A stretch of DNA of 64,000 nucleotides, taken from Escherichia coli (GTDB lineage: Bacteria; Pseudomonadota; Gammaproteobacteria; Enterobacterales; Enterobacteriaceae). Below are positions 38,952-64,000 of this stretch, one piece after another. The position numbers were made by a program, and so were the translations under genes. Numbering within the stretch: the stretch's first letter is position 1; each line of letters opens with the position of its first letter. The stretch is from assembly GCF_024502345.1 (NCBI RefSeq), contig NZ_JALDNN010000001.1; one strand, written 5' to 3'. The notes below the pieces were generated by a model. That model was not told the DNA's origin. It did no database searches and saw nothing but the letters and a program-made list of their open reading frames with translations.

Positions 38952-40196
<1,245 letters not shown>

Positions 40197-40226
40197 TCAA
40201 ATTTAAATGATCAGATCAGTATACCG

Positions 40227-41549: not shown

Positions 41550-41580
41550 GGTAACCTCCCGAGGAAAAGAGTATGAGGCG

Positions 41581-41670: not shown

Positions 41671-41675
41671 CTTAC

Positions 41676-45098: not shown

Positions 45099-45100
45099 CA

Positions 45101-45285: not shown

Positions 45286-45311
45286 GCCGGATGCTGCCTA
45301 CGAAGGGCAAA

Positions 45312-46094
45312 CTACCCACGAACGTTAAACACCGCATACGTGTTATTAAGCAACACTTCGGCAATCTCATCCGCCGGTTCCCGGCGCAACTCGCAAAGCA
45401 CGTCAAACACCCGCGCAGCCTGTTCCGGGCGGTTAGGCTGCCCTTGAAAGCCGTTGAGCGGCATATCCGGCGCGTCGGTTTCCAGCAACAACGATGCCAG
45501 CGGTAATTTTGCGATGACATCGCGGGTTTTACTGGCGCGTGGATAGGTGATAGTACCGCCTACGCCGATTTTGTAGCCCAGCTGTACAAACCGCTCGGCC
45601 TGTTGCAGGCTGCCGGAAAAACCGTGAACCACGCCAGTGCGCGATAAATCGTGGCGTTTAAGATGCATCGCCAGTTTGTCGTGTGTGCGCCGTGAATGCA
45701 GGATCACCGGCAGATCGTAGCGTTTCGCCAGTTTCAGTTGTTCGTCGAGTAACCACTGCTGCCTCTCAAATTGCGGATCGTCGCCGAAGAGATCCAGACC
45801 GATCTCCCCCACCGCCACCACCTTCGCCGGACGCCTTTCCAGCGCCTGCTGTAGCTGATCAAGAGACACATCGCTATGTTTTTCCAACATCCCCGGATGC
45901 AACCCCAATGCGGCATACAGCGGTTGATATTTTTCCGCTAACGCCTGCACGCGGGCAAAATTTTCCGCCTCTGTCGCCGGAACAATGATCTTGCCTACAC
46001 CCGCTTGTGCCGCGCGTTGCAGGCTGGCCTCTTCATCGCCACTAAACGGCGGAAAATCAAAATGGCAGTGGGTGTCGATAAAACGGCAAATCAA
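45312..46094 (-). CDS. yjjV: TatD-family metal-dependent hydrolase YjjV
   Basis: 260-aa MICRFIDTHCHFDFPPF... (HxH metal motif). Confidence 0.9.
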   Translation of the reverse strand: MICRFIDTHCHFDFPPFSGDEEASLQRAAQAGVGKIIVPATEAENFARVQALAEKYQPLYAALGLHPGMLEKHSDVSLDQLQQALERRPAKVVAVGEIGLDLFGDDPQFERQQWLLDEQLKLAKRYDLPVILHSRRTHDKLAMHLKRHDLSRTGVVHGFSGSLQQAERFVQLGYKIGVGGTITYPRASKTRDVIAKLPLASLLLETDAPDMPLNGFQGQPNRPEQAARVFDVLCELRREPADEIAEVLLNNTYAVFNVRG

Positions 46095-47164
46095 GCCAGA
46101 TCCTCATTGTTAAATGTCGGGTCGTTCGCCTGCGGAGCATCGCTCACTTCGGCAACCAGCGTATCGTTGGCGACTGGCGCAGGCGGAATAACAATCGATT
46201 CCGGCGTCACCACTGGCACCAGATGGCGGGTAAGCGGCGCTTTTTCAGTTAATAGCTTGCCAACCGTGGCGAGGAAATAACGACCGCATAAACGCCCAAG
46301 TTTATAGTCTTCACGCAGCGCCGGAATCCGACTGCCAAGCGCGATACTATGTAATGGCTTCGGCGGATAAATTTCGAATATCCGCAGCTTGCCCGGTGGT
46401 TTCTCAATAAATTGCTGAATGTCACGATAGCTGGTTTCATGATGCTGCACCAGATTGACCAGCGGCTGCAGGCTACTGTCACCCAGCCAGCGTTCCATGC
46501 GTTTGAACCACTGCGGCGTGTAGTACATTTGTGACGGCACAGTGCGGATGACGACCAACGTTTTAGCGCCCTGCCTTGCCGCCTCTTTAACCGGAATCGC
46601 ATCACTGATCCCGCCATCCAGGTAGTTAATGCCTTCCAGCGACACTCCGCTACGATAAAAGCCAGGTATCGCACTGGAGGCGCGAATCACATCCAGCCAG
46701 TTTTGTTTGGTTGGTAAAAAGTAATTCGGCGCGTAGTCATCCTGACGACAGGCGCACATATAAAACGATTTGCCGCTGTCAAACAACCGCGCGGCGGTAT
46801 CCATTTGCAACGGCATCTGGCTTGCGGTGGCCTCCACCAGCCAGTCGAGATCGATAAGATTTCCTCCACGGACAAAGCGCAATGGATCGAAAAATTCGCG
46901 TTTTGTGGTATAGCGCATGATGACTTTGCGCGCGTAACCGGGCTGATTGCAGATAAACGCCGAGAGGTTCTGCGCCCCGGCAGATGTGCCGAGATAAAGA
47001 TCGAAAGGATTAAACTGCGCGCGCATAAACTCATCCAGCACGCCAGCCGTGAAAATTCCACGCTGTCCGCCGCCTTCGCACACCAGAGCTATTCGTCCAG
47101 GCTGGAACGGCCTTAGCGACAACGGCGCAATATTACCCAGCGTTACAGGTATTCGCTGCCCCAC
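46091..47164 (-). CDS. yjjU: Patatin-like phospholipase YjjU
   Basis: GxGxxG...GTSAG patatin motifs; start set at the GTG giving 357 aa, which is uncertain. Confidence 0.85.
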   Translation of the reverse strand: MGQRIPVTLGNIAPLSLRPFQPGRIALVCEGGGQRGIFTAGVLDEFMRAQFNPFDLYLGTSAGAQNLSAFICNQPGYARKVIMRYTTKREFFDPLRFVRGGNLIDLDWLVEATASQMPLQMDTAARLFDSGKSFYMCACRQDDYAPNYFLPTKQNWLDVIRASSAIPGFYRSGVSLEGINYLDGGISDAIPVKEAARQGAKTLVVIRTVPSQMYYTPQWFKRMERWLGDSSLQPLVNLVQHHETSYRDIQQFIEKPPGKLRIFEIYPPKPLHSIALGSRIPALREDYKLGRLCGRYFLATVGKLLTEKAPLTRHLVPVVTPESIVIPPAPVANDTLVAEVSDAPQANDPTFNNEDLA

Positions 47165-47285
47165 CTCTGCCTTCCTGTTTTTGTTGTGAAAGAATGACAA
47201 AGTAACGCAATTTATTATTCGCTAAAACCGCAAAAGCCAGTCCGCTGGACTGGCTTTGGATAAAATTTTCTTAATGGTCTGAAAT

Positions 47286-47447
47286 CTAGGGTCGTTTTCG
47301 GCCCATGAACAAACTCACCAGGAACAGAATAATCCCGACGACAAAGACAATTTTAGCTGCGCCTGCAGCGGTACCGGCCAGACCACCAAACCCAAGTGCG
47401 GCGGCGATTAACGCGATAACCAGAAATATGATGCCCCAACGAAACAT
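47286..47447 (-). CDS. ytjA: Small membrane protein YtjA (DUF1328)
   Basis: 53-aa [53 protein letters not shown]. Confidence 0.85.
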
Positions 47448-47573
47448 AAGCGTCTCCTTTACCATAGTTAATGTCACCGCTTGATATGAGCGTGAAAATC
47501 ACTCAATGCGATATTTTTAGTGTGGTGCACATCGCGCCTCCCGACAAAGTTCGGGAGGACGAATTACGACGAA

Positions 47574-48179
47574 TTACTTAGTTTTCAGATCATTTTTAAC
47601 GCTTTTCACACCATCTACCGCTTTGGCGATACTTTCAGCACGGTCACTTTGTGCCTGAGAATCTACGGTACCGAAGAGCTGAACCACGCCATCGGTGGTT
47701 TCAACTTTCACATGACGGGAAGGGACGATATCGTCCGCCAGCAGTTTGGCTTTGATTTCACTGGTGGTGGCGGTGTCACCCGCGTAGCCCTTCACCGAGC
47801 CTTCTTTAGCGTCGCGAACGTGCAGTTTGTCGCTGACAGAGGTCACCCCTTCAACGCCTTTCGCCACTTTTACTGCCTCTTCGGCCTGGGCCTGGCTTTC
47901 AACGAAACCGCTCAGGGTCACGACTTTTTGATCGGTTTTTACAGAGATATCGGTGCTCTTGATGTTGTCATGATCCACCAGGGCCGCCTTCACTTTCGCG
48001 GTGATGGCGCTGTCATCCATGAAATTACCGACTTTATTCATAGAGCTATCGACTTTTTGCCCTGCGCTTTCATTGGTAGTCTGCGCGTTGTTTTCCGCGT
48101 AGGCAGAGCCGGTCGCGACGGCAGAGGTCAACATTACAGCCAGCAGAGTTTTCGAAATCTTCAGTCTTGTCATAGTCAT
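47574..48179 (-). CDS. osmY: Osmotically inducible periplasmic protein OsmY
   Basis: 201-aa from [28 protein letters not shown]...; two BON domains. Confidence 0.95.
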
Positions 48180-48571
48180 CGATTTATTCCTGTATGTTTG
48201 CTCGTAATTTGAGCCTGGCAACACGAGGTTGCATTGCTGAATAGGGAGAGACTTCACCCTCTACAGAAGTCAATGGTCGCCATCACAAAAGCGATGAGTG
48301 ATAAATAACGACCATTACAGCCTCTGAATCAGTTATTAATATCGGTAGAATGACAATCGACGGCTTTAGATACTGATATCTACGCATTGAACGGTATTTA
48401 ACGCCGTCAGAAATGTCATCACTTTGTTAAATATAGATCACAATTTTGAAACCGCTCGTGATATCAGCGAAAACATAAGCAAAAGTGAATGTTTTAAGAA
48501 CATTCCGTAAGCGGCTAATAAGGAAGGGAAATTGACAGGGCGCAGCGGCTACCGCGCCCTGGAGGCAAGAA

Positions 48572-50158
48572 TTAATGCTCGCGGGTCTGGTGGAACTGAA
48601 CGTCCGGATAACGTTCCTGCGCCAGGCGCAGATTGACCATGCTGGTAGCGATGTAAGCGAGGTTATCGCCGCCATCAAGCGCCAGTTGGCTTTCGTTCTT
48701 ACGCTTGAACTCTTCGAATTTCTTCGCGTCCGCACATTCTACCCAGCGGGCAGTGGCAACGTTGACTGACTCATACACTGCTTCAACGTTGTATTCGCTC
48801 TTCAGGCGCGCTACAACCACATCAAACTGCAGCACACCAACTGCACCAACGATCAGGTCGTTGTTGGAGATCGGACGGAACACCTGCACCGCGCCCTCTT
48901 CGGAAAGCTGTACCAGCCCTTTGAGCAGCTGTTTTTGCTTCAGCGGATCTTTCAGGCGGATACGACGGAACAGTTCTGGTGCGAAGTTCGGAATACCGGT
49001 GAACTTCATCATCTCACCCTGGGTAAAGGTGTCGCCGATCTGAATGGTGCCGTGGTTGTGCAGGCCGAGGATATCGCCAGGATACGCTTCTTCAACGTGC
49101 GAACGGTCACCCGCCATAAAGGTCAGCGCGTCAGAGATCACCACGTCTTTCGCGGTGCGCACCTGGCGCAGCTTCATGCCTTTTTCATATTTACCGGATA
49201 CCACGCGCATAAACGCCACGCGGTCGCGGTGTTTCGGGTCCATGTTGGCCTGAATTTTAAATACGAAGCCGGTAAATTTGTCTTCGCTCGCTTGTACGGT
49301 ACGGGTATCAGTCTGACGCGGCATCGGCGCAGGTGCCCACTCCACCAGGCCATCCAACATATGATCGACGCCGAAGTTACCCAGCGCAGTACCGAAGAAT
49401 ACCGGAGTGATTTCGCCCGCAAGGAACAGCTCTTTGTCGAACTCGTTAGACGCGCCTTTAACCAGTTCCAGTTCGTCACGCAGCTGCTGTGCCAGATCTT
49501 CACCAACCGCAGCATCGAGATCCGGGTTATTCAGCCCTTTAACAATGCGGACTTCCTGAATGGTGTGCCCTTTACCGCTCTGATAGAGATAGGTTTCATC
49601 TTTATAAAGGTGGTAAACGCCTTTAAACAGCTTGCCGCAGCCAATCGGCCAGGTGATCGGCGCACAGCCGATTTTCAGCTCGTTCTCAACTTCATCGAGC
49701 AGTTCCATCGGGTCGCGGATATCACGGTCAAGTTTGTTCATAAAGGTGAGGATCGGCGTGTCGCGCAGACGGGTAACTTCCATCAGCTTACGGGTACGAT
49801 CTTCAACACCTTTTGCGGCGTCGATAACCATCAGGCAGCAGTCCACCGCCGTCAGGGTACGATAGGTATCTTCCGAGAAGTCTTCGTGCCCCGGGGTGTC
49901 TAGCAGGTTAACCAGGCAATCGTGATACGGAAACTGCATCACAGACGTAGTAATGGAGATCCCACGCTGCTTTTCCATCTCCATCCAGTCCGACTTAGCG
50001 TGCTGGTTGGAACCACGGCCTTTTACTGTACCAGCGGTCTGAATGGCCTGTCCGAACAGCAGCACCTTCTCGGTGATGGTAGTTTTACCGGCGTCCGGGT
50101 GAGAAATAATTGCAAAGGTTCTTCTTTTCGCTACCTCTGCGGCCAAAAGGCTTGTCAT
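48572..50158 (-). CDS. prfC: Peptide chain release factor 3 (N-terminus differs from K-12)
   Basis: 528-aa from [27 protein letters not shown]...; K-12 RF3 as recalled begins MTLSPYLQEVAKRR. Confidence 0.93.
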
Positions 50159-50176
50159 AATTGTTGTCTCTTTGAT

Positions 50177-50293
50177 TATGTACAATCATATGTACAAAGA
50201 AAAATTCATGCCGCTGATTGTACATTTTGGAGGTATCAGAGCATAGCAGAACATGATCAGTAGGTGTATTTGTAGCCAAAGAACATTTGTACA
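50177..50293. repeat. Cluster of four TGTACA hexamers (two as TATGTACAA spaced 12 bp)
   Basis: TGTACA at 50179, 50191, 50219 and 50288, far above chance; lies between the prfC start and the dinI-like gene. Confidence 0.6.
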
Positions 50294-50346
50294 TGCAGCA
50301 ATCTTTGTTCTATTGACACTGTTTATTCATACAGTTAAAAATAACA

Positions 50347-50362
50347 CTGTATACAAACACAG
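50347..50362 (+). promoter_or_regulatory. LexA (SOS) box upstream of the dinI-like gene
   Basis: ctgtatacaaacacag = CTGT-N8-ACAG, 16 bp upstream of the start codon. Confidence 0.75.
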
Positions 50363-50377
50363 TGTAGAGGGATTTTT

Positions 50378-50626
50378 ATGCGTATTGAGATCTGCATAGC
50401 CAAAGAGAAAATGACTAAAATGCCAAACGGTGCTGTGGATGCGTTAAAGGAAGAATTAACTCGACGCATCAGTAAGCGTTATGACGATGTAGAGGTGATC
50501 GTAAAAGCCACCAGCAACGATGGCCTTTCTGTTACGCGCACCGCCGATAAAGATTCAGCTAAAACTTTTGTTCAGGAAACTCTGAAAGATACCTGGGAGT
50601 CTGCTGACGAGTGGTTTGTTCACTAA
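50378..50626 (+). CDS. DinI-family DNA-damage-inducible protein
   Basis: 82-aa [31 protein letters not shown]...[15 protein letters not shown]; C-terminus resembles DinI (QETWESADDWF). Confidence 0.85.
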
Positions 50627-51052
50627 TTAACACGTAAAATCGGTAACGGCTGGAAATCATTCAATACTCGCACTATCGGAAGTTCACCAGCCAACCGCAG
50701 CACGTTCTTGCATACGACGTGTCTGCGGTTTTTCAACCATTCAGATACAGCACTCTCATCACATTCATTCTTCCGCATTAAAGTATATATGACCATATCA
50801 CCTTAATATTTTTCTTCTTCAGATAAAAATTGTTATCTATGTATACTTTTAAACCGAATCCGTGTAGAGTCTCTACCTAAGTTAGTTCGCAGCTACCCCT
50901 TCAGTTTGCGCCATTAACCTCCTGACTTTTGCCGCTATCTGTAAGCATTCCTGTATACCTGAAACTACAGGGTTCATCTACGAACTTTAAGAACACCCAG
51001 GATAAAAATTGTCAACTATATTATATATAACACCATACTAATTCGAGGCTAT

Positions 51053-51166
51053 ATGAACAGCATACTGATAATCACTTCACTACTTATCATATTCAGCATT
51101 TTTGGTCATGCTCTAATAAAATTAGGGATTGGCATATCCAATAACCCGGACAAAACCGATGTATAA
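51053..51166 (+). CDS. Hypothetical 37-aa hydrophobic peptide
   Basis: [37 protein letters not shown]; GAGG 5 nt upstream of the ATG; promoter-like AT-rich element upstream. Confidence 0.35.
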
Positions 51167-51234
51167 GTCAACATATCCTGAATCAGACATACAATATTGC
51201 AATGAAAACCAATAATATTTTAAGGAATATCTTC

Positions 51235-51468
51235 ATGAAATCAAAAGACACCCTAAAGTGGTTCCCTGCGCAGCTTCCTGAAGTCAGAATTATCCTGGGA
51301 GATGCTGTCGTGGAAGTAGCAAAACAGGGAAGACCTATCAATACCAGAACATTGCTTGATTACATTGAAGGAAACATAAAGAAAAAGTCATGGCTGGATA
51401 ACAAAGAATTATTACAAACAGCGATATCAGTTCTTAAAGACAACCAAAATTTAAATGGTAAAGTGTAA
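51235..51468 (+). CDS. ydfK: YdfK/YnaE-family prophage protein (cold-shock-inducible family in K-12)
   Basis: 77-aa MKSKDTLKWFPAQLPEVRIILGDAVVEVAKQGRPINTRTLLDYIEG...; AGGAA RBS. Confidence 0.7.
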   Translation: MKSKDTLKWFPAQLPEVRIILGDAVVEVAKQGRPINTRTLLDYIEGNIKKKSWLDNKELLQTAISVLKDNQNLNGKV

Positions 51469-51847
51469 TACCTCCCCTGAAAAATAATTTTTCAATGCAT
51501 TAAAAAAATATCAACAACTACGTTATTCCGCAACAACCTACTTTTTTTACCATTTTTCCACTTTAACAACATTTTGCTCCACTTTTCCACGACCAAACAA
51601 CTTAAAATCTGGTTAAAATAACATACAACACTATTATTCGTCTTCCTCGAGTCCGCCCGGAGTTCGAAAAACAAACCGAGTTAAAGCCATTTTTCAAAAA
51701 ATCGATTTTTGGTTACACCAAAATTACGGGACTGCATCCGAATTCGTTTATTTTCGAACGTATACATACAAATATGTACAATAATAAGCGAAATAATTTT
51801 TGGATATGCATTATGATATGTACACCAATTTCGTATAGAGTCTCACT

Positions 51848-52438
51848 ATGTCTCGAATTTTTGCTTACTGTCGGATATCAACGCTGGATCAGACCCCCGA
51901 AAATCAACGCCGGGAAATCGAAAGTGCAGGTTTTAAAATCAAACCTCAGCAAATAATCGAAGAACACATTAGCGGCTCAGCAGCAACCAGTGAGCGTCCT
52001 GGTTTTAACCGGTTGCTTGCTCGCCTGAAATGTGGTGATCAATTGATTGTGACAAAACTGGATCGCCTTGGTTGTAATGCAATGGATATCAGGAAAACAG
52101 TGGAACAACTGACCGAAACAGGTATCAGAGTGCATTGCTTAGCATTGGGGGGCATTGACCTGACCAGTCCAACAGGAAAAATGATGATGCAAGTAATTTC
52201 AGCAGTCGCTGAATTTGAACGAGACCTTTTACTTGAACGCACTCATTCCGGGATAGTAAGAGCCCGGGGCGCAGGGAAACGTTTTGGTCGACCACCTGTG
52301 TTAAATGAAGAACAGAAACAGGTGGTATTCGAACGAATTAAGTCAGGTGTAAGTATAAGTGCCATTGCCCGGGAATTCAAAACCTCGCGGCAAACCATTT
52401 TAAGAGCCAAAGCAAAACTTCAGACACCTGACATATAA
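51848..52438 (+). CDS. pin: Serine recombinase, Pin-like DNA invertase (PinQ/PinR type)
   Basis: 196-aa [15 protein letters not shown]...; resolvase/invertase catalytic N-domain plus C-terminal HTH. Confidence 0.85.
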
Positions 52439-52535
52439 AAAATAATCTCGGTGTGAGATGCTTTACGTCTTCCAAGCCCCCTTCCTTGCCGTAAATGGAA
52501 AGATACATCTAATTATAGAATTTATATGTTTTACC

Positions 52536-53111
52536 CTACGGCAGTGCTGGCCATTCAATATCCTGTGCAGTTGACGTATCAACACGGTTCAGCAATACCC
52601 GATACTTTTTCCATGCTTCCAGCAACGAGATTTCTTCCTCCGTTGCAATTTCCAGATCTGCAGCATCCTGAAGCGGCGCAATATGCTCACTGGCTACCTG
52701 CATCAGGTTGTTTTTTGTTTCTTCCGCCTCCCGGATCCGGAACAGTTTTTCTGCTTCCGTATCCTTCACCCAGGCTGTGCCGTTCCACTTCTGAAACTCC
52801 CCTTCCGGGGATAACCAAGTGACATTTTCCGGTAATGGGCCAAGTTCAGAAATAAATAACGCGTCGCCGGAAGCCACGTCATAGACGGTTTTACCCCGAT
52901 GGTCTTCAACGAGATGCCACGATGCCTCATCACTGTTGAAAACAGCCACAAAGCCAGCCGGAATATCTGGCGGTGCAATATCGGTACTGTTTGCTGGCAG
53001 ACCTGTATGAGGTGGAATATATGCATCACCTTCACCAATAAATTCATTAGTTCCGGCCAGCAGATTATAAATTGTTATGGTCCGTGGTTGTTCACTCATT
53101 CTGAAATCCAT
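52536..53111 (-). CDS. tfa: Tail fibre assembly protein Tfa
   Basis: 191-aa from the ATG preceded by an AGGTG SD; ...[37 protein letters not shown]... as recalled for TfaQ/TfaR. Confidence 0.85.
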
Positions 53112-53119
53112 GTTCACCT

Positions 53120-54022
53120 CTACTTAATATCAGAGACAGAATATTGTTTATTGAACGTATGGGTGTGAGCACCAATAACGATGCTACTTCCGTGGCTATG
53201 TGCGCCAGAGATGACATTACCTACGGGATTTTCTGGATTAATCCGGTGTATATGCGAACCAGGGCGAAACCGGTTATTAGCCTGATGTTGTATCAGTACA
53301 TCATCAGCCTGATGTTCAGGGTTAATACAGACCTGCCCGGAACGTGAGCAATACGTCCGATAATCGCCGCATCCAATATATTTAGTATCCGCATAACGGC
53401 AAACAGAATTACCCGGACAGTATGCATATGTGCCAAATACTGCCGACTGGCGGGATTGTGCGTATTCCCAGTTAATTGATTCTGTTTTTTTATTAAAGTT
53501 ATCCCATGCCTGCTTCATCTGCCGGGCAACACTTTCAAACGGCACCTGACCACATCCGGCTCCCATTGCAGGGAATACCACCGTTTTTATTTTCCTGTCT
53601 GTCGTTGCGTGTTTATTGTGCTGAAAGATGGCAAGCAGAGCGGCCCAGGTTGCGTTATATACAGCGTCTGTTCCGTCAATTGTCAGCGGAACACGCATTG
53701 TTGGCGCATGTACCAGCCAGGGATGATGATTATGCCCCGTTTCAATAACAAATGCAGAACCTACAGGCTGCTCGCCGAGATATTCACGAAGAATATGATT
53801 CTGAACGCGGGACTGTAACTGAGTACCGAAGAATGCGGTAATGGCGGCATCAACACCGCCATCCATCAGGCCGAAACTGTTTGCCGCACTTACCATGCAG
53901 TCAAATTCCCTGATTGTTTCAAATGGCTTTCCGACAATATTCACATTATCTGCATTTGCGAATACCCGCTTAAATGCTTCAGCCATTTCTGTTACTGGTG
54001 CAGAAAGAATGAGCGTAATCAT
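53120..54022 (-). CDS. Macrodomain protein with tail-fibre-like His-x-His C-terminal region
   Basis: Macrodomain motifs [42 protein letters not shown]; C-terminal ...[18 protein letters not shown]; ATG overlaps the stop of the upstream stf fragment. Confidence 0.6.
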
Positions 54023-54186
54023 GCAAGCCTCACAATATAGTTAAATGCGATGTTTTTGACGGTGTTTTCCGCGTTACCAGCAGCGTTAACGGTGATGGTG
54101 TGTCCATGTGACCCTATCGCAACGGAGTGCGTATGAGCACCAATACCGACAGTATGCGCGTGTGCACCTGCAGATACTGCTGTAAA
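54019..54186 (-). pseudogene. Side tail fibre (Stf) C-terminal fragment
   Basis: ...[51 protein letters not shown]; joined out of frame to the terminase fragment upstream. Confidence 0.7.
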
Positions 54187-54892
54187 AACGCATGAAATGT
54201 GCCGACTCGTTAGCGGCTTTTTCGATCTGGCAGGAGCCTTTGATTTTAGGCGTCGAGCCGCGAATGGATTTTGGCCATACAGAGCCCTCAATACGTTTAT
54301 CCCCCAGCAGGGTTGGCGAACCCTCTTTTTCAACATCCGGTTCGAACGAGGAAAGTTCGTCATAGCAGACCACATCCACGGATTTTTCACGGTAGTTTTT
54401 GGCGGCAGCGCCGCCCAGGCACCATAAACCGACGCCCGATGAAAAGCGTTTCAGCGTGAGGGTATTATCACGATGTTTACGACCCAGCCATGGGGAAAGG
54501 TCTTTCAGGCATGGCACGTCCCTAATCGTCGTCTCCACGTGAGACTTCATAAAATCTTCAGCGGCAGAATCCGTGGGCTGAAAAAGCAGACTGTTTCGGG
54601 ATTTATGCTCAATAAAATACCCGACCACCCCCAGCAACATCTTTGTATAGCCAACACGGGCAGATTTAATCAGATTAACTGTGCGGATCTGATCATTCCC
54701 CATACTGTTCATGATGGCGATCTGGAACGGCAGCGTTTTCCATTCGCCGTCACCGTATGAGGATTCTTTCGGCAGATAATAATACTGATCAGCCCATTCA
54801 ACTGCCGTCATCGGTACAACCCTGACCAGAGGCTGCAGCGCAACCGAAACGGCAGCCATCAGATTATTCAGTTGTTGCTCTGATATATTCAT
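54185..54892 (-). pseudogene. Terminase large subunit (lambda gpA-like) N-terminal fragment, about 235 codons
   Basis: MNISEQQLNNL...PMTAVEWADQYYYLPKESSYGDGEWKTLPFQ...[41 protein letters not shown] closely parallels lambda gpA 1-215, then similarity stops. Confidence 0.85.
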
Positions 54893-55370
54893 CCAGCAAA
54901 TCCGGTAATTTATCCCCTGCCCGCGCACACTGATTTGCGCCCTTCGCAATAAGGGTTTTCAGATGGTCAAGATGACGTGGCGTTAAATCCGGGAACTGTC
55001 GCTGCATGGATAACGGAATAGAATCAAGCGTACTGGACAATGCCATCGCCAGCTTGCTGAGGGCGAAAACGCAGAAGTCTGAATCGATGAGCTTACCTTC
55101 GGTTACCTGATTTTTAAGTTTTTGAGCTACGGCCTGTTCTTCTGTCAGTTCAGCTCTGGCCCGAAGCAGCCTTTCCTCCAGATCGCCCCCGTCATCAGGT
55201 GTTCTATGATTGTGTTGTCGCCGCTCGCGATCTATCTCCAGTACAGTTTTAACGTCATAAAAAACTTCCCTCCCCCGACGCTCGACAGGAGGAACGCCCC
55301 ATTTATCAAATGCCTGAACAGAGATACCGATGGAGGAGGCCATATCACTTTTATTCAATAAAAAGGCCAT
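54864..55370 (-). CDS. noh: Terminase small subunit, Nu1-like (Noh)
   Basis: MAFLLNKSDMASSIGISVQAFDKWGV... resembles lambda Nu1; GGAGAGGAG SD; 3' end overlaps the terminase-A fragment start. Confidence 0.8.
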   Translation of the reverse strand: MAFLLNKSDMASSIGISVQAFDKWGVPPVERRGREVFYDVKTVLEIDRERRQHNHRTPDDGGDLEERLLRARAELTEEQAVAQKLKNQVTEGKLIDSDFCVFALSKLAMALSSTLDSIPLSMQRQFPDLTPRHLDHLKTLIAKGANQCARAGDKLPDLLDEYIRATTE

Positions 55371-55797
55371 CTCCTCTCCATAAGTCATCGATAAAAAGCG
55401 ATACAACAACCATGTGTTTTTACAAAACCATTTGATATCATTTAATTTTTTCACATTAATGACATCAAAGCACATCGTAAGGTTGTTGTATTTATTTTAT
55501 TTTCACCTTACTTATCAATTAGATATACCAAACAATTAAACAACAACCACCCCCTCAAAAAATCTCATAAATAGCGAAAAACCGCGAGGTCGCCGCCCCG
55601 TAACCTGTCGGATCGCCGGAAAGGACCCACAAAATGATAATAATTATCATCTACATATCACAACGTGCGTGTACGCCATCAAACCACGTCAAATAATCAA
55701 TTATGACGCAGGTATCGTATTAATTGATCCGCATCAACTTAACGTAAAAACAACTTCAGACAATACAAATCAGCGACACAGAATACGGGACAACCTC

Positions 55798-55989
55798 ATG
55801 TCAACGAAGAACAGAACCCGCAGAACAACAACCCGCAACATCCGCTTTCCTAACCAAATGATTGAACAAATTAACATCGCTCTTGATCAAAAAGGGTCCG
55901 GGAATTTCTCAGCCTGGGTCATTGAAGCCTGCCGTCGGAGACTAACGTCAGAAAAGAGAGCATCTACATCAATCAAAAGTGATGAATAA
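55798..55989 (+). CDS. YlcI/YnfO-family small prophage protein (DUF3950)
   Basis: 63-aa MSTKNRTRRTTTRNIRFPNQMIEQINIALDQKGSGNFSAWVIEACRRRLTSEKRASTSIKSDE. Confidence 0.7.
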   Translation: MSTKNRTRRTTTRNIRFPNQMIEQINIALDQKGSGNFSAWVIEACRRRLTSEKRASTSIKSDE

Positions 55990-56242
55990 TGAATATCCCG
56001 GTTTCTTTACCTCCCCTCCCACCCCGCACAGGACTGGCGAACGTGTGGGACAAATATGTGAGTCATAAACGCCTTATCTTCAGAAATGCAGTTGGCATCC
56101 GAACAGGACGATATTGTAACTTCACCTAATTACGAGGCATTGCAGTAGTTGAATTGTAGTTCTGTATTAGCCTGACAGTGACAGAATGCGATATTGACTC
56201 TGTCACAGGTGAAATAGTTTGAATGGTTAGCAGTTATGGCGA

Positions 56243-56449
56243 TCAGTCAACCACCAGGGAATAATCCTTCGAATTCTTATCGTGCTTCACCAACGCTGCC
56301 TCAATTGCCCTGAATGCTTCCAGAGACACTTGATGTTCTATACATGCAATTACAACATCCGGATAACTCATAGAAATGGTGCTAGTGAGCATAGTTTTTA
56401 CACGGACCTGATCCAAGGATGAGTCATCAGTGTATTGATCTTTATGCAT
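56243..56449 (-). CDS. Hypothetical 68-aa protein (possibly a truncated YdfO-like gene)
   Basis: ORF only; identity uncertain. Confidence 0.35.
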
Positions 56450-56744
56450 TTTGTCGCTCCATGCGTTTGCTCTTCACTTGCGGCTAAAAATATAACGTCA
56501 AATCACTCAGCATGAAAGTGTGAAAGTTTCAGCGCGTTTCCCTTACATAATCTGTCGTTTGTATTCTCTCCAGGCATACCGGAAAGACTAGGTATTGTCA
56601 CACAACCAATACCACCGACTATCGAGATTTATATCTATTCGGTAATGTTTAAATATAAAAAAACCCCGTAAAAACGAGGTTTATGGGTAAATTGTATTGT
56701 TGAATAGCATCTGATAAGAAATTGATGCTAATACTATAAACACA

Positions 56745-56918
56745 CTAGATTAAATCAATCTTGATATCATAGCTTTCAAGACCAGTCATTTTTTCCCGTG
56801 CAGTAAACTGGATACTGGTAACTTCTTTCCCGGTCTTTTTCTTAAGCTCAATAATTTTTTTTGTTATATATTCAGAAATATCTGCTTCTGTTTTTGTTTT
56901 TAACTCTTCAATGTTCAT
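56745..56918 (-). CDS. gnsB: GnsA/GnsB-family protein
   Basis: 57-aa MNIEELKTKTEADISEYITKKIIELKKKTGKEVTSIQFTAREKMTGLESYDIKIDLI. Confidence 0.85.
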   Translation of the reverse strand: MNIEELKTKTEADISEYITKKIIELKKKTGKEVTSIQFTAREKMTGLESYDIKIDLI

Positions 56919-57090
56919 CATTTCCTCTTTTAGTCTGTTATGACTTTCCTGGTACACAGTAGTGTCAATTATATGGAGCAAACGTATAAAAGATAAGATG
57001 AAACATCGCAATAATCAACATACGACAGTCTAAATTTCGCACAAACAGATAAAGATGATTATCCTTTATTATCAAGGCATTAGAATGAAA

Positions 57091-57321
57091 TCAATTCAAG
57101 AGTCTCATTGCTGCTTCCAGAATTTCTTCTGAAGTTACATGTCGATCCGCTGCTACATAAATGACTTTATGATCTCCGGTCAGAGATGGAAACCCTGCAG
57201 CCATTACAGTGAGATGTGTTGTTTCGCCATTTGGATATTCACGCATGATGGTGTTAACTCCGGTCATCACTGGCACTACCATTGCTGGTTCAGAGTTAAA
57301 AAAAACTATTATTTTTTTCAT
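57091..57321 (-). CDS. Hypothetical 76-aa protein
   Basis: MKKIIVFFNSEPAMVVPVMTGVNTIMREYPNGETTHLTVMAAGFPSLTGDHKVIYVAADRHVTSEEILEAAMRLLN. Confidence 0.45.
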   Translation of the reverse strand: MKKIIVFFNSEPAMVVPVMTGVNTIMREYPNGETTHLTVMAAGFPSLTGDHKVIYVAADRHVTSEEILEAAMRLLN

Positions 57322-57363
57322 GATGTTACCGTAATATGTGAGTATCCATCGACTAGACACTAA

Positions 57364-57386
57364 GCAAAAAAGCTCCCGAAGGAGCC
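57364..57386 (-). terminator. Rho-independent terminator (minus strand)
   Basis: gctcccgaaggagc hairpin followed by TTTTTT on the minus strand. Confidence 0.6.
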
Positions 57387-57592
57387 TTCATTTTCACTTT
57401 CTTAAATCTAACGACAGACGGCTAACATTTAAGTATTGTGAAATATTATCAAATGTAATCATCATTGATTTACAAAAGATACATTTTGCCCCGAAAGGAT
57501 TCCTGTCAGAAACATCAAAAGATGATGTTCTATACTGAGAACCATGGCAACACGGGCATCTAAAGTGAATATGGTTTGTAATATTTTCTACC

Positions 57593-57805
57593 TCAAAGTG
57601 CCACTACATGAACAGCCGCGGGGCCTTTAGGTCCGTTCTCAATACCAAATTCGACTTGCTGATTCTCAGTTAACGTTTTGAAATCGTTGCTCTGAATAGC
57701 TGAGAAATGGACAAACACATCTTTGCTACCATCTTTCGGCGTGATGAAACCAAAACCTTTTTCAGGGTTAAACCATTTCACTAAACCAGTCATTTTGTTA
57801 GACAT
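57593..57805 (-). CDS. cspI: Cold shock protein, CspI-like
   Basis: 70-aa [70 protein letters not shown]. Confidence 0.92.
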
Positions 57806-58174
57806 CATTATTACCTTTTGAAGAAGTGAGCCCTTGGGCAGAATGGTCCGAAAAAAAATATCAGAGAGAAAAACCAACAAGGAAATCTCAAGAGGTACAA
57901 ATAATAAAATTATAACAATGACTGCTTCAGATAATTTTGTAACAAACCAGAACACCATTAACGCATGATTAACCAACCATAGCAAGGATTACTTTTGTAA
58001 AGAAAAACACACGAATGAAACAATAGCTTTATTTATTAATAAAACGTGTCATTCTGTCTAATGACCTTTTATCTTACCCTTAAGATTTCAAGGATTTTGA
58101 CTCATGGAAGAGTCCTTTTTATTTAAATTTCACATTCAGCGCTAAAAATAATCCGATTTAATGTTAATCTACAT

Positions 58175-59196
<1,022 letters not shown>

Positions 59197-59301
59197 GGAT
59201 ATTTATCAGGATTTATCGGTTTCTGAACCCTGGATATGTTTATCTGTCCCGGCCTGTTGAATCAGGCGGGGAAAAGGTAAAGACAATCAAGAGGATTATT
59301 T

Positions 59302-59574
59302 ATGGACAATAACACCATTTCTCTACAGGAGTTGCTCGACTGCATTTCAAAGCTTCGGGATGATGTAAATGCCCTCACTGTTGCATTTTCATATTTGGCC
59401 TTATCAATTCCCAGAGAACAAATGCAACCAACACTGGCATCGCTCCTGCTTGAATCACGCAACCCCAAATGGTCCCAGGAACAACAAAATTCTTTCAAGT
59501 GGCTGGCGGCATTACTGGAAGAAAAATATGCTGGTAAAATTACCATTTCGGTGGAGTCTTCAGAGAATCAGTAA
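59302..59574 (+). CDS. Hypothetical 90-aa protein on the opposite strand within the lysis cassette
   Basis: AGGA 7 nt upstream of the ATG; MDNNTISLQELLDCISKLRDDVNALTVAFSYLALSIPREQMQPTLASLLLE... Confidence 0.35.
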   Translation: MDNNTISLQELLDCISKLRDDVNALTVAFSYLALSIPREQMQPTLASLLLESRNPKWSQEQQNSFKWLAALLEEKYAGKITISVESSENQ

Positions 59575-59884
59575 TTCTTCCTGGTAGCTTTCCTTTGTAG
59601 GTTATCCACACATTCTGCGCCTCTAAAATTACGGGGCGCTTTTCCGGCGACTGCTCATCCCCTTCACATAACCCGGCTGCAACTTCCAGGAAGACCTGTC
59701 TGATGCTCCTTCTGGCTGCTGCCTCATAAAACTCCAGCGCGGCACCTTCAACACGGTCCAGCGAGATGTCCAGGTCAAAAATTTCACCGTCAAAGCGTTT
59801 TTTGTCCCTTAATGCTACAGTTACCGCAACTTTATTCTCAAAATTGCGGATCCCTTTCACAATCAGTTCATAGTTTTGTGTCAT
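59540..59884 (-). CDS. YdfR-like prophage protein (DUF1327)
   Basis: MTQNYELIVKGIRNFENKVAVTVALRDKKRFDGEIFDLDISLDRVEGAALEFYEAAARRS... Confidence 0.65.
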   Translation of the reverse strand: MTQNYELIVKGIRNFENKVAVTVALRDKKRFDGEIFDLDISLDRVEGAALEFYEAAARRSIRQVFLEVAAGLCEGDEQSPEKRPVILEAQNVWITYKGKLPGRITDSLKTPPKW

Positions 59885-59888
59885 TGAA

Positions 59889-60104
59889 TTACTCTCCCCG
59901 TGCAACCTTACGCTTGTCTTCTTTAATCTTGAAATAAAGGTTTGTCAGGTACGTCAGCAAGCCAAATACCAGACTACCCAGCACACCGATTGCAGCCCAC
60001 TGTGACGGAGTTACTTTATCGAGTAACTGCAATGCCCAGAAACCAGCATTACCAGCCGATGTGCCATAGGCGATACCTGTTGTTAACTTATCCATTGATT
60101 TCAT
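59889..60104 (-). CDS. Phage holin (EssQ/EssD type)
   Basis: 71-aa [71 protein letters not shown]. Confidence 0.88.
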
Positions 60105-60322
60105 ATCCTCACCCCGATGTACACAGATGGTGCAATATGTTTGAAAAGATCGGAGTCTATGGGGTAGTTTTTATAGCAAACGTTGTTCTCAACGGCGCTA
60201 AAAAACAGACACATTAAAAATGTGGGTAATTATTTTAAAAGAAAATCATATATTAAATAATAATACGAGATATGTTTTCATATTTAGTGTACTGTATACG
60301 GCCATTTATACAGGAAAAGCCT

Positions 60323-60493
60323 ATGTCAGAACGTAAAGACTCAAAATCACGCCGTAATTATCTCGTTAAATGTTCCTGCCCAAACTGCACCCAAGAGTCA
60401 GAACACAGTTTTTCAAGAGTACAAAAAGGTGCCCTTTTGATCTGCCCTCATTGCAACAAAGTATTCCAGACAAATCTTAAAGCTGTAGCTTGA
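60323..60493 (+). CDS. Small zinc-ribbon protein (56 aa)
   Basis: MSERKDSKSRRNYLVKCSCPNCTQESEHSFSRVQKGALLICPHCNKVFQTNLKAVA; CxCPNC...CPHC; AGGAAAAG RBS. Confidence 0.55.
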   Translation: MSERKDSKSRRNYLVKCSCPNCTQESEHSFSRVQKGALLICPHCNKVFQTNLKAVA

Positions 60494-60552
60494 TTGATTT
60501 TATTCGTAACAAGTATTTTTTATATTTTAATAACATATTTAAAGCAGATAAT

Positions 60553-60576
60553 AAAAAACCCGCCTGAGCGGGTTTA
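60553..60576. terminator. Bidirectional rho-independent terminator
   Basis: aaaaaacccgcctgagcgggttt. Confidence 0.7.
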
Positions 60577-60856
60577 ATATTGTGGTACTTTTTGTGGGAG
60601 TCATCCACTTACGCACTTTGTTTTGCTATGCCAGCAGTTAGCTTCTGCTGTAAAACTATTCATGCAGCAAACCTGCACTTCACCACAATGGTTAGCATAC
60701 TTTTCCTGATTAAGTTATTGCCAAATATGCTGGCCATTGTTTCATGTATTGGACCTCCTTACTCTTTATTAAAGAGATCCAATATTCACCACTCTGTCTG
60801 TATCTCCACTCAGGCATCAGCCTTCTTCGTTATCGTATACAGACAAACTATGAATT

Positions 60857-61072
60857 TTAATCAGTAATTATGACATTTGCTGCTGCAGGACCTTTAGCAC
60901 CACTCTCTACAGAGAAGGTAACCTTTTGACCTTCAAATAAGATTCGATAATTATCATTCTGAATCGCAGAAAAATGCACAAACACATCTTTACTACCATC
61001 AACAGGAGAAATAAAGCCAAAACCTTTATCAGCGTTAAACCATTTTACTAAACCAGTCATTTTATTTGACAT
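60857..61072 (-). CDS. cspB: Cold shock protein, CspB-like
   Basis: 71-aa [71 protein letters not shown]. Confidence 0.92.
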
Positions 61073-61372
61073 TCTACATTCCTTAACTTGAGCCTTTCGG
61101 CATAAATGGCTTGTATAACAGAAACGACTTCGTACTTAATTGGAGAGACTCAAAGAAGGAATAAGTGAATAACACCTGAAATGAGAACTGCTTTAGTAAA
61201 CTACTTCGTATATCGTCTGTTCTTCAAACCGACGCAATCATTAACGCATAGTTGAACATATGAAGCAATGTTTATTTTAGACATCCAGCCATCTTCAACC
61301 CCATCAAAAAACTATAGCTTTCTTCAGGAACGTGTGTATAGTGCGCCAAGTTATCAGTATTAAGGAATTTTT

Positions 61373-61585
61373 TTGTCCCGTAAAATGACAGGAATTCTCA
61401 AAACCTTTGACGGCAAAAGCGGCAAAGGTCTTATAACCCCATCCGATGGTCGTATCGATGTCCAGCTTCATGTTTCAGCGCTCAATCTCCGCGATGCAGA
61501 AGAAATTACCACCGGATTACGCGTGGAATTTTGCCGGATAAATGGTCTGCGTGGACCATCAGCTGCCAATGTTTACCTTTCATGA
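61373..61585 (+). CDS. cspF: Cold shock-like protein, CspF/CspH type
   Basis: 70-aa [70 protein letters not shown]. Confidence 0.88.
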
Positions 61586-61639
61586 GCTATATTAAAGCTT
61601 TAACTTCAAGCCCCATCGAATCAAACATGGAGAGTTTTC

Positions 61640-61729
61640 ATGAATAAACCCGTCTGTCTTGATGACTGGTTGATTGGCTTTAAAAGCTTATGCTGTACTT
61701 TGACCTTAATAGCTCTGCTAATAATGTAA
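61640..61729 (+). CDS. Hypothetical 29-aa hydrophobic peptide
   Basis: [29 protein letters not shown]; GGAGAG SD 6 nt upstream. Confidence 0.3.
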
Positions 61730-61876
61730 TAAGCAGACTCATTGTATCTATGGACATTGTACTGGAAGAAAACATTTTAAACATCAGGCAAAAAACAAAG
61801 TCACCCGATAAATAATAAGTAAACTAACATGAATCCCGTAATGAGATTCAACATCTCTATTACCCTATTTAAAGCA

Positions 61877-61912
61877 CAAAAACCCGCTCATCAGCGGGTT
61901 TTCTACTTTTTC
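61877..61912 (+). terminator. Rho-independent terminator
   Basis: aacccgctcatcagcgggtt hairpin followed by a T run. Confidence 0.7.
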
Positions 61913-62007
61913 TTAACTTCGGGTATACAAAGCCCATCGTTGAAAAAATTTTATCCATATTTTTTGAAAAATGCAAGCATCACGTCGCCATCTTCGGCGA
62001 AAATCAC

Positions 62008-62760
62008 TTATCTCGTCACCTTTCTCAATTGTGCTTCAGCGTAAGATTCCTCCTGCCAGCACTTTGTAACCAGTTTATCAATGACATTTGCATATCCTTT
62101 ATACCACTGATAATCACTCAGGTCCGGTACCAGCTTCTGGACATGATGCCGCGCCAGTGTGGTTGGTAAACGACTAAACCGTTTTCCATTGCAACGCCCA
62201 CAAATCTTATAAACAGGTGTGCCATGAAGCCGGGTCCTTTTTTCATCCAAGACAATACCTTTACCCTTACACCCTCTGCACGCTGTGCTGACTTCTCCCT
62301 TACCATGGCAATGCTGACATAGTTCCTTCACCCACTCTTCTTTGATAACAGATTCCCCGCTTCTGGAGTGTTTCACCACTTCGCGCAATACATTATGAAA
62401 TCCAGTACCAGCACAATGCTCACAACGAGCCTTACTTGCCGCAGACCTGGAATAATCAGCAAAGGCAAAATTCACAAGGTAAGGAATAATCTGTAGCCGG
62501 GTTTCTTCACTCAATTTATTCAATGTCGGGTTATCCAGTGCCATCGCGTAATTGAGCAGACCTTCAATCGCAAACTGAGGATCCTGAACACCAACTTTTG
62601 CCAGGAATAAGGCAAACCCAAGCGGTGCTTTCGACTGCACCATCCCCTGCGCAGCCATCACATCCGTAATCGTTAAACCACCAGAGCCTGTCGCCGGTGC
62701 GTCATCACTCAATTTTGGAGATTTTGGGGAGTAATATTTTGGTAAGGCTTCAAGGTTCAT
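62008..62760 (-). CDS. Late-gene antiterminator Q (QuuQ/YdfT type)
   Basis: 250-aa ORF with Cys-rich zinc-finger-like segment CEHCAGTG...CQHCHGKGE...CRGCKGKG...CGRCNGK. Confidence 0.8.
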   Translation of the reverse strand: MNLEALPKYYSPKSPKLSDDAPATGSGGLTITDVMAAQGMVQSKAPLGFALFLAKVGVQDPQFAIEGLLNYAMALDNPTLNKLSEETRLQIIPYLVNFAFADYSRSAASKARCEHCAGTGFHNVLREVVKHSRSGESVIKEEWVKELCQHCHGKGEVSTACRGCKGKGIVLDEKRTRLHGTPVYKICGRCNGKRFSRLPTTLARHHVQKLVPDLSDYQWYKGYANVIDKLVTKCWQEESYAEAQLRKVTR

Positions 62761-62820
62761 GCTCGTTCTCCACTTACGCCAGTACGCCTATTGCCAGCGC
62801 ACGATCGATAAAACGAAATA

Positions 62821-63171
62821 TCAGCTCCAGCTGGGAGCCATACTTCTCTTCAAATGCCACGGTAAACGCTGGTTAATATCGGCATTGTCCACATCCTCGA
62901 CGTCAGGAAGAGACACAAAGACGCCATTTGCAGACTGCGCCACAGCGTCAGCAATGAAGTGAGTGCCACCAGCACGTTGTAAAATCATTGCCCATCCCAG
63001 CGGGAAAATCTGATCGCCATCGGCACGAAGGCGGTTAAATAATGCGTTCTCTGTTACATCCAGCCACTCAGCAGCTTCAGCGTACCCCACCGGCAACGCC
63101 GCGATAGTTTTTCTGACAGCTTTCACGTACCACTCAGGCTGTTTTTCCACTTTCCAGTGATGATTACCCAC
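62821..63171 (-). CDS. Hypothetical early-region protein, possibly CII-like regulator
   Basis: 116-aa, GTG start, immediately downstream of cro; family not identified. Confidence 0.45.
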   Translation of the reverse strand: MGNHHWKVEKQPEWYVKAVRKTIAALPVGYAEAAEWLDVTENALFNRLRADGDQIFPLGWAMILQRAGGTHFIADAVAQSANGVFVSLPDVEDVDNADINQRLPWHLKRSMAPSWS

Positions 63172-63424
63172 GGCTTACCTCCTGTTCCTGTGGTTTAAAC
63201 CCATTCTGGTTTTGGCTAGATTGAAAACGTGCCGGATAAAGAATCTGCATTTCGCTGATTTCACCCTTAAAAAAATTGGCCAGACGTTCTGCAAGATCGA
63301 TAGATGGAATTTGTTCCAGTCTTTCAATACGACTCAGCGTCGCTGGATTGACCTGAACGCCAGCAGCAACATGCTGCAAAGTAAATCCGTGCGCCTTACG
63401 CACATTCCGTAATGGTGATTGCAT
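63164..63424 (-). CDS. Cro-like HTH (XRE family) regulator
   Basis: 86-aa MQSPLRNVRKAHGFTLQHVAAGVQVNPATLSRIERLEQIPSIDLAERLANFF...; divergent from cI. Confidence 0.75.
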   Translation of the reverse strand: MQSPLRNVRKAHGFTLQHVAAGVQVNPATLSRIERLEQIPSIDLAERLANFFKGEISEMQILYPARFQSSQNQNGFKPQEQEVSRG

Positions 63425-63438
63425 ATGACCTCCACATA

Positions 63439-63501
63439 TTGCGTGATGAGCATATTATTTCACGCAAATATTTTGCGCAAGTTGATTTGCTTAACGCGCA
63501 A
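63439..63501. promoter_or_regulatory. Two dyad-symmetric operator candidates between cro and cI
   Basis: TTGCGTGA-N13-TCACGCAA at 63439-63467 and TTGCGCAA-N13-TTGCGCAA-type dyad at 63473-63501. Confidence 0.6.
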
Positions 63502-63521
63502 TAAAGAAATGTAATAAACGC

Positions 63522-64000
63522 ATGAACATAGGAAACCGAGTCAGACAACTTCGCCAAGCGAAGAACATGAAAATCGCCGATCTCGCTGAAGCAATAGGAG
63601 TGGATGCGGCGAATATCTCACGCCTGGAAACAGGTAAGCAGAAACAATTCACTGAACAAGCCCTGAGTAATATTGCCAGGAGCTTAGGTGTTGATATTGC
63701 TGATCTCTTTACCTCAGACTTCAAAAGTAATACTGTATGTAAAAACAGTGTTAGTGAGGATGTTGCGCAGGTGAAGGATGTATTCCGTATTGAAATGCTG
63801 GATGTCAGTGCCAGTGCGGGAAATGGCCTTATCCAGGGCGGTGATGTCATTGATGTGATTCATGCCATTGAATACAGAACTGATAATGCTGTATCGATGT
63901 TTGGCGGACGGCCAGCCAATCACATTAAAGTTATCAACGTTCGTGGGGACAGTATGTGTCCAACCATTGAGCCAGGAGATCTCATCTTCGTTGATGTCAG
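63522..64000 (+). CDS. CI-like repressor (HTH plus S24 LexA-type peptidase domain), truncated by window end
   Basis: MNIGNRVRQLRQAKNMKIADLAEAIGVDAANISRLETGKQ...VINVRGDSMCPTIEPGDLIFVDV; open to the last base. Confidence 0.8.
   Translation, partial: MNIGNRVRQLRQAKNMKIADLAEAIGVDAANISRLETGKQKQFTEQALSNIARSLGVDIADLFTSDFKSNTVCKNSVSEDVAQVKDVFRIEMLDVSASAGNGLIQGGDVIDVIHAIEYRTDNAVSMFGGRPANHIKVINVRGDSMCPTIEPGDLIFVDV

Follow-up and report, generated by a model that had tools for sequence, protein, structure and literature searches.

An immunity module joined to Q by a single 5.3-kb deletion in a Qin-like defective prophage of Escherichia coli

How does a repressor/Cro immunity module come to lie beside the antiterminator gene Q, with a single short open reading frame (ORF) in between? 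This question is raised by the right end of a 64,000-nucleotide stretch of the Escherichia coli contig NZ_JALDNN010000001.1 (assembly GCF_024502345.1), referred to below as the window. A first-pass annotation, made from the letters of this sequence, had described there a divergent cro/cI pair about 97 bp apart, dyad operators, a probably leaderless cI and a missing replication module. We listed the ORFs, read positions 61000-64000 and identified the genes with Pfam profiles. The divergent pair and its 97-bp gap proved to have been placed exactly, and the cro-Q interval indeed holds only a 116-amino-acid (aa) ORF. As set out below, the locus is very likely an immunity switch of a widespread lambdoid type, found in mEp460, SfII and some Stx2a phages, within a Qin-like defective prophage between prfC and yjjG that lost a block of genes by a single deletion.

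The genes on either side can be identified with little difficulty (Table 1). Q matches phrog_127 over its full length (1-250 of 253) and equals mEp460_050 in length. The cI product matches HTH_3/HTH_26 and Peptidase_S24; within the window it codes Ala99-Gly100 and Ser144, and its S24 domain is, as had been noted at first pass, intact as far as the window shows. Sequence past position 64000, which the first-pass annotation had proposed to extend, was read in a proxy with the same junction, the near-identical IMG/VR contig IMGVR_UViG_2660237951_000013 (hereafter L048). Here cI is complete at 230 aa, with Lys181 and a full S24 match of 68 bits, and is followed by a truncated SIR2-like ORF (201 aa) and then a 407-aa integrase. 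By every feature testable from sequence, the region is therefore a repressor/Cro immunity module of the lambdoid cI/Cro class, and superinfection immunity, SOS inducibility and repressor binding are predicted.

The origin of the compact order becomes apparent when the region is compared with intact relatives. A similarity search split it at a single point: positions 62008-62864 matched the DUF968 3′ end and Q of SfV-like and Stx2c phages, and positions 62867-64000 matched ymfL-cro-cI of mEp460, SfII and Stx2a phages. In E. coli 2013C-4974 (NZ_CP027587, hereafter L003) this defective prophage is likewise inserted between prfC and yjjG. In alignment, window positions 59200-62864 correspond to L003 26980-30644 with 99.92% identity, and positions 62862-64000 to L003 35916-37054 with 99.74% identity. 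Relative to L003 the window lacks 5,274 bp, in one block, and relative to phage mEp460, which has the same gene order, it lacks 6,017 bp. One illegitimate-recombination deletion between two GTA triplets has brought codon 103 of ymfL directly against the final 30 codons of the DUF968 gene, which lies immediately upstream of Q. The large deletion proposed in the first-pass annotation is thereby borne out. In L003, the lost interval comprises most of the DUF968/HNH gene (329 aa when intact, matching PF06147), kilA-N, rusA, a LexA-like gene, an N6-adenine methyltransferase gene (dam), a PerC-like gene, a gene for a 313-aa HTH protein, DUF4222 and ymfL codons 104-183. The HTH protein corresponds to phrog_391, annotated as ‘replication initiation O-like’ (E=9e-136). 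Replication genes in normal order elsewhere, which had been named at first pass as the finding that would overturn this view, were looked for and none was found in the prophage part of the window, which also has no initiator and origin between cro/cII and Q. With the replication/nin-type block deleted, the immunity module now abuts Q.

The 116-aa ORF is explained by the same event. Its YmfL part carries one substitution and its 13-residue tail is read from the DUF968 3′ end. The profile search suggested at first pass gave a match to CP76 (PF06892) of 16.2 bits, below the cut-off of 26, over profile positions 5-91 of 146; an intact 183-aa YmfL relative scores 52.1 bits against the same profile. 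The ORF is a ymfL/DUF968 fusion scar and no gene, and its YmfL copy is a truncated pseudogene.

We considered whether the order cI-cro-ORF-Q might instead be the original arrangement of a compact element (a satellite, say, or a phage lineage with replication genes elsewhere), with no deletion involved. The tidy look of the order and the open state of the 116-aa ORF are the only points in its favour, and we regard it as extremely improbable, since the flanks are 99.7-99.9% identical to a same-site prophage that has the additional 5,274 bp, the junction falls inside two genes at a 3-nt microhomology, the ORF is an out-of-frame fusion for whose product an exact look-up found none on record, and none of 5,426 complete E. 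coli genomes has the junction. Rarity is also what might suggest that the junction is an assembly or chimera artefact: a 30-mer spanning it has one match in IMG/VR and none among GTDB representative genomes, so that a single other public sequence carries it. However, that independent contig, L048, differs by 1 base in 3,479, is hence a separate record, and has the identical junction, which therefore is not an artefact of one assembly. Moreover, microhomology is typical of real deletions, and an IS1203-associated loss of the same module in E. coli O111:H8 demonstrates that such losses occur. An artefact is accordingly very improbable, and a single deletion remains our reading of the junction. 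Its absence from the complete genomes argues in addition against selection for it.

Other losses were seen in related elements. The O111:H8 strain 7-15 45A gave the best whole-region match in complete E. coli genomes and was rejected as a carrier of this junction, as its deletion is a different, IS1203-associated one with another junction. In this related prophage the replication/nin block was lost independently (L001 6767-8416), and what borders the gap is a partial IS1203, a truncated copy of the DUF968 gene and a ymfL remnant that is shorter, at 210 nt. Similarly, L048 lacks another 3,528 bp between cI and int relative to L003 (L048 4186-4188 versus L003 37764-41288). This second loss took yfdP, a DUF2303 remnant, IS3 and part of a SIR2-family gene, and the overlap is again 3 nt.

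The immunity module itself contains a set of operator-like sites. The first-pass annotation had pointed to two dyads, TTGCGT-N17-ACGCAA (63439-63467) and TTGCGC-N17-GCGCAA (63473-63501). Both are exact and are the sole TTGCGY-N17-RCGCAA matches in 64 kb; shuffled sequence leads one to expect 0.01, so that two lie far above chance. For a wider view we assembled 304 loci from metagenomes and from E. coli, Klebsiella and Salmonella (ST64B/F1055 type) that encode this cI or a relative with as little as ~68% identity; among them are 233 non-identical loci, 129 unique upstream sequences and 27 representatives with pairwise identities below 93%. The E. coli, Salmonella and Klebsiella types have the same cI recognition helix, DAANISRLETGKQK, and the cI-cro gap is 97 bp in three phage relatives that we fetched (F1055, Klebsiella phi7.2 and Eeyore). 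Scanning the 233 loci between -600 and +1290 relative to the cI start for at least 9/10 positions of TTGCG-N5-CGCAA returned 1,057 matches, almost all of them at -133, -83, -56, -35, +748 and +771 relative to the cI ATG, versus just 0-57 matches for the same half-sites with spacers N2-N4 or N6-N9. Among the 27 representatives, TTGCG-N5-(C)GCAT, the cro-strand TAAnAT, CGCAA, TGTAAT and a block TTGCGCAAGT-G--TTGCA are invariant, and the bases between them vary. On this comparative basis, the conserved operator-like unit is a 15-bp dyad, TTGCR-N5-YGCAA, at fixed positions, to which binding is predicted. The half-site TTGCG of the first-pass annotation thus stands, but its 29-bp pairing does not; the N19 geometry of the 29-bp dyads scores merely as a composite of adjacent elements.

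Individual sites retain this geometry while their spacers change. For example, the site inside cro (O-d) is kept as nTGCR-N5-CGCAn in all 129 unique sequences with 15 spacer variants, and the codon choice matches the dyad, with Leu as TTG and Ser as TCG or Ala as GCG; our terminator scan flagged O-d as a terminator-like hairpin. Similarly, O-a occurs as TTGCG-N5-NGCAT in 128/129 unique sequences (21 spacer variants) and O-c as TTGC(A/T)-N5-CGCAA in 126/127 (20 spacer variants), the latter at -35 in 230/233 loci. The middle of the control region is less uniform. The right arm of the first 29-bp dyad, TCACGCAA, lies in the least conserved stretch; of the 129 unique sequences only 26 have it, each with 93% identity or more to the window. 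Together with 63473-63477, it forms a reversed dyad, CGCAA-N5-TTGCG, centred on 63470 at the place expected for an OR2-like site.

Beyond the window there are two perfect sites, TTGCATATCTCGCAA and TTGCATAATGCGCAA, at L048 3749-63 and 3773-87 (also L002 13062 and 13086). This pair is of the TTGCA-N5-CGCAA type, lies 24 bp apart directly after the cI terminator (L048 3700-3800 = L002 13020-13100) and overlaps a TTGCAT-17-TATCTT promoter candidate, an OL/PL-like unit. In L003, yfdP follows this unit after ~700 bp that carry no gene annotation; an Rfam scan of the immunity region and of this ~700-bp stretch after cI gave no match.

The predicted promoters fit around these sites. For the cro promoter candidate, PR, the -35 hexamer is kept in 127/129 upstream variants, and the -10 reads TAAnAT in nearly all 129. 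Initiation near 63445 would leave a cro leader of ~20 nt carrying the GGAGG Shine-Dalgarno sequence. The cI gene, unlike cro, lacks such a sequence: the Shine-Dalgarno-like 4-mers GGAG, GAGG, AGGA, AAGG, GGGG and GGTG occur at -17 to -4 of cI in none of the 129 variants, and there is no in-frame start codon for cI between the stop at 63492-63494 and 63522. A TGTAAT hexamer stands exactly 6 nt before the ATG in 127/129 unique upstream sequences, with 16 variants of the intervening 6 nt. This has the same geometry as lambda PRM (TAGATT-N6-ATG), from which transcription begins at the A of the start codon (Walz et al. 1976, cited in PMC4681348). Moreover, differential RNA sequencing (dRNA-seq) of K-12 detected only five leaderless mRNAs, three of which belong to the prophage repressors dicA, racR and ymfK (PMC4681348). 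The cI mRNA is thus probably leaderless, a claim that is well supported yet unproven. The first-pass annotation had reached the same view with TAATAA (63512-63517, four bases before the ATG) as the -10 hexamer; the lack of a Shine-Dalgarno sequence holds, but the fitting -10 is TGTAAT.

Several observations weigh against this account of the locus. The window end truncates cI, the completeness of which is read solely from L048, a 99.97%-identical proxy. Between the junction and Q there is a hairpin with a T-tract (62840-62822, minus strand), native to the DUF968 3′ end in intact phages. The window copies of the OR sites are imperfect, agreeing at 8-9 of 10 positions, and the OR2-like middle site, at -56 in relatives, has no left half in the E. 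coli type of the window, where it reads AAATA. Within the window alone, neither the 15-bp pattern with mismatches allowed nor TGCG-N5-CGCA is more frequent than in shuffled sequence, so that the case for the operators depends on the sites keeping their positions from locus to locus. The perfect 8-bp arms of the first 29-bp dyad have no explanation under a 15-bp unit. As for the promoters, TGTAAT has no A at the usually critical position 2 of a -10 hexamer, and a generic promoter scan called neither PR nor PRM; it called instead a plus-strand TCCACA-16-TATTAT (63431-63458), implying a cI leader of ~57 nt. Promoters, start sites and operator occupancy are all predictions.

Two alternatives build on these points. 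The 29-bp dyads TTGCGY-N17-RCGCAA could be the true operators, with repressor subunits contacting half-sites about two helical turns apart; both are exact and unique in the 64 kb, the arms of the first are perfect, and the geometry of the second is present in 127/129 variants. However, none of the 103 variants outside the E. coli type has the right arm of the first, despite the common recognition helix, and each arm of the second falls on another conserved element, one on the PR -35 palindrome and the other on the right half of O-c. Furthermore, the perfect pair beyond cI consists of 15-bp units, neither of which has a partner at N17/N19, a third 29-bp copy is absent from the 24.8 kb of mEp460, and the preference for the N5 spacer is specific. 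We therefore consider the longer pairing distinctly unlikely and retain the 15-bp unit. Less readily dismissed, although still unlikely, is the idea that cI is expressed mainly from a leadered transcript with no Shine-Dalgarno sequence, starting at an upstream plus-strand promoter or at one activated by cII(YmfL) and read through cro, with TGTAAT serving another role. The scan call and the missing A would fit this, in lambda, cI is additionally expressed from PRE, whose transcript has a leader, and intact relatives encode the CII-like YmfL. Yet the TCCACA -35 is not conserved in relatives, TGTAAT keeps its fixed distance from the ATG while the 6 nt vary, as a start-setting -10 predicts, and YmfL is truncated in the window, so that the establishment route would be dead here. 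In any case leadered and leaderless routes can coexist, as in lambda, and a leaderless cI mRNA remains the reading we favour.

Table 1. Positions of genes, junction, candidate promoters and operator-like sites at the right end of the window
Feature	Position	Strand	Description	Basis or remark
Candidate tR′	61879-61902		G+C-rich hairpin, T-runs on both sides; ~70 nt downstream of PR′ candidate	terminator scan
Candidate late promoter PR′	61976-61971; 61953-61948	minus	TTGCAT, 17 bp, TAAAAT	read from sequence; below scan threshold (3/6 + 5/6 matches)
Q antiterminator gene	62008-62760	minus	intact, 250 aa	PF03589, E=1.5e-53 (179 bits)
DUF968/HNH gene remnant	62774-62864	minus	last 30 codons + stop	99.9% to L003 30554-30644
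Chimeric 116-aa ORF	62821-63171	minus	pseudogene scar; YmfL (cII-like, CP76 family) residues 1-103 + 13 out-of-frame residues	
Deletion junction	62862-62864		3-nt microhomology GTA	both parental sequences read; L003 alignments overlap by 3 nt
cro	63164-63424	minus	86 aa, HTH_3	GGAGG Shine-Dalgarno at 63429-63433
O-d	63389-63403		GTGCG-CCTTA-CGCAC	inside cro codons 8-13; -133 to cI ATG
cro-cI control region	63425-63521		97 bp	between divergent cro and cI
O-a	63439-63453		TTGCG-TGATG-AGCAT	overlaps PR -10 and start region
TCACGCAA	63460-63467		right arm of 29-bp dyad 1	8-bp perfect inverted repeat with 63439-63446
Central palindrome TTGCGCAA	63473-63480		PR -35; right half of relatives’ OR2-like site	invariant block in 27 representatives
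Candidate PR for cro	63480-63475; 63457-63452	minus	TTGCGC, 17 bp, TAATAT	inferred from sequence
O-c	63487-63501		TTGCT-TAACG-CGCAA	overlaps -35 and spacer of cI promoter candidate
Candidate PRM-like promoter	63487-63492; 63510-63515	plus	TTGCTT, 17 bp, TGTAAT, 6 nt, ATG	inferred
cI repressor	63522-64000	plus	codons 1-159 of 230; HTH + first half of Peptidase_S24	cut at window end

The module would operate in the same way as that of lambda. In both, cI and cro diverge from a region of about 100 bp (97 bp in the window and 100 bp in lambda) whose back-to-back promoters are overlapped by copies of a dyad operator, further operators are clustered beyond cI, and the outer OR sites are 48 bp apart here and 47 bp in lambda. 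Likewise, both have a -10 hexamer 6 nt before a cI ATG that has no Shine-Dalgarno sequence, and both repressors combine HTH and S24 domains. In contrast, the operators show no sequence homology to those of lambda, being 15-bp TTGCR-N5-YGCAA units and not 17-bp sites, cro contains an additional conserved site, N is missing, YmfL of the CP76 family is the counterpart of cII, and Q belongs to PF03589 rather than to the lambda Q family. Unlike lambda, this copy also has nothing of what lies between cII codon 103 and the gene before Q.

The immunity type is that of mEp460 (JQ182728), with which cro, the control region and cI share 98.9% DNA identity over 63164-64000; the 29-bp dyads are identical, YmfL follows cro, and the DUF968 and Q arrangement is the same. 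SfII is 93.3% identical over the same interval, and SfII, PhiR63_1 and Stx2a_1447/WGPS2 share the immunity type with mEp460. Unlike the remnant in the window, these phages are complete, and in mEp460 the additional 6,017 bp between ymfL and Q encode Rha-like, replication, dam, rusA and kilA-N genes. This cI has 414 relatives in IMG/VR, and the best 80 of the 414 are all 99-100% identical. A mention of mEp460 in a paper on Qin proved to concern a different phage, mEp460_evo81, with dicA/rem.

Copies of the same defective prophage in 2013C-4974 and O55:H7 CB9615 occupy the same site, prfC-yjjG, have the same Qin-like cspI, rzpQ, rrrQ, essQ, cspB, cspF and Q, and are 99.7-99.9% identical. Unlike the window copy, they keep the ymfL-DUF968 block, have ISEc8 in the lysis region and lack a 4.5-kb pin/tfa/terminase segment. 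The defective prophage Qin of K-12 resembles the window in its late order (Q, cspF, cspB, essQ, rrrQ, rzpQ, cspI), in its pinQ, tfaQ and nohA-type remnants, and in retaining a repressor with a leaderless mRNA (dicA), but it has the immunity region dicA/dicC and another chromosomal site. Between Q and the immunity genes, K-12 Qin keeps ydfU (DUF968), rem, hokD and relBE. The e14 element of K-12 (ymfK/cohE, ymfT/croE, ymfL) has the same repressor-cro-ymfL order, its YmfL is 94% identical, and its ymfK mRNA is experimentally leaderless (PMC4681348), with TTTAAT-N6-ATG. Nevertheless, e14 is heteroimmune: the similarity of YmfK to this cI is confined to the S24 core (E=5e-6), and YmfT and the Cro of the window are unrelated proteins. 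We therefore rejected e14 as a homologous model of the switch, YmfL alone being shared, and its leaderless ymfK is an analogy, not homology.

To the left of Q lies a Qin-type late region, 99.9% identical to L003, with cspF, cspB, the holin gene, ydfR, the endolysin gene, Rz and cspI. Holin (71 aa), endolysin (177 aa) and Rz (163 aa) are equal in length to the annotated essQ, rrrQ and rzpQ products. Downstream of Q, the PR′ candidate and the strong hairpin after it (61879-61976) resemble a short PR′-tR′ unit of ~70 nt. Of virion genes the window has remnants only (Nu1, the N-terminal part of terminase gpA, a tail-fibre assembly gene and the Pin invertase) and thus no complete set of head and tail morphogenesis genes; a macro-domain ORF and DinI next to prfC are also found left of the late region. 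Positions 51776-56338 (4.5 kb), absent from the 2013C-4974 copy, contain the Pin-type invertase, the tail-fibre assembly gene, the gpA N-terminal part and Nu1, as well as a 300-aa macro-domain ORF in place of the expected tail-fibre end. The chromosomal flank (deo-prfC, 39001-51775) is 98.5-98.6% identical to 2013C-4974, and the prophage (56339-64000) 99.7-99.9%. Recombination may have passed the prophage remnant from one lineage to another, or its acquisition may be recent.

Taken as a lambdoid switch, the module would work as follows. The repressor, and probably also Cro, would bind the 15-bp dyads. Repressor on O-a, and on the middle site where present, would block PR, which drives cro, and repressor or Cro on O-c, centred at -28 of the weak cI promoter, would shut cI. 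The cI transcript would begin at or beside the A of the ATG, leaving the mRNA leaderless, as at lambda PRM. The conserved site inside cro, at +49 of PR, could act as a roadblock or looping partner, a role that the pair after cI might share. RecA-stimulated self-cleavage at Ala99-Gly100 would derepress PR which, owing to the deletion, would now read cro-ymfL′-Q as one short unit of 1.4 kb. Derepression would then switch on Q, next PR′, and finally the intact holin, endolysin and spanin genes. Induction by DNA damage is thus predicted to cause Q-dependent lysis with neither replication nor virion production. One might go further and see in the remnant a minimal SOS-triggered lysis switch, perhaps kept for a population benefit through altruistic lysis or the release of cell contents, but we think this rather doubtful.

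In sum, this is an ordinary decayed prophage of an already known kind, in an already sequenced and annotated family, and not a new system. For annotation, it should be treated as a defective prophage with a 5.3-kb deletion, in which the 116-aa ORF is a ymfL/DUF968 fusion pseudogene. In the searchable literature we found no description of operators or transcription starts for the mEp460/SfII/SfV/ST64B immunity type, and the predicted sites assembled herein provide a usable operator and promoter map for this very common enterobacterial type. Finally, leaderless mRNAs are known to be associated with prophage repressors, and the cI of this type is probably a further example.

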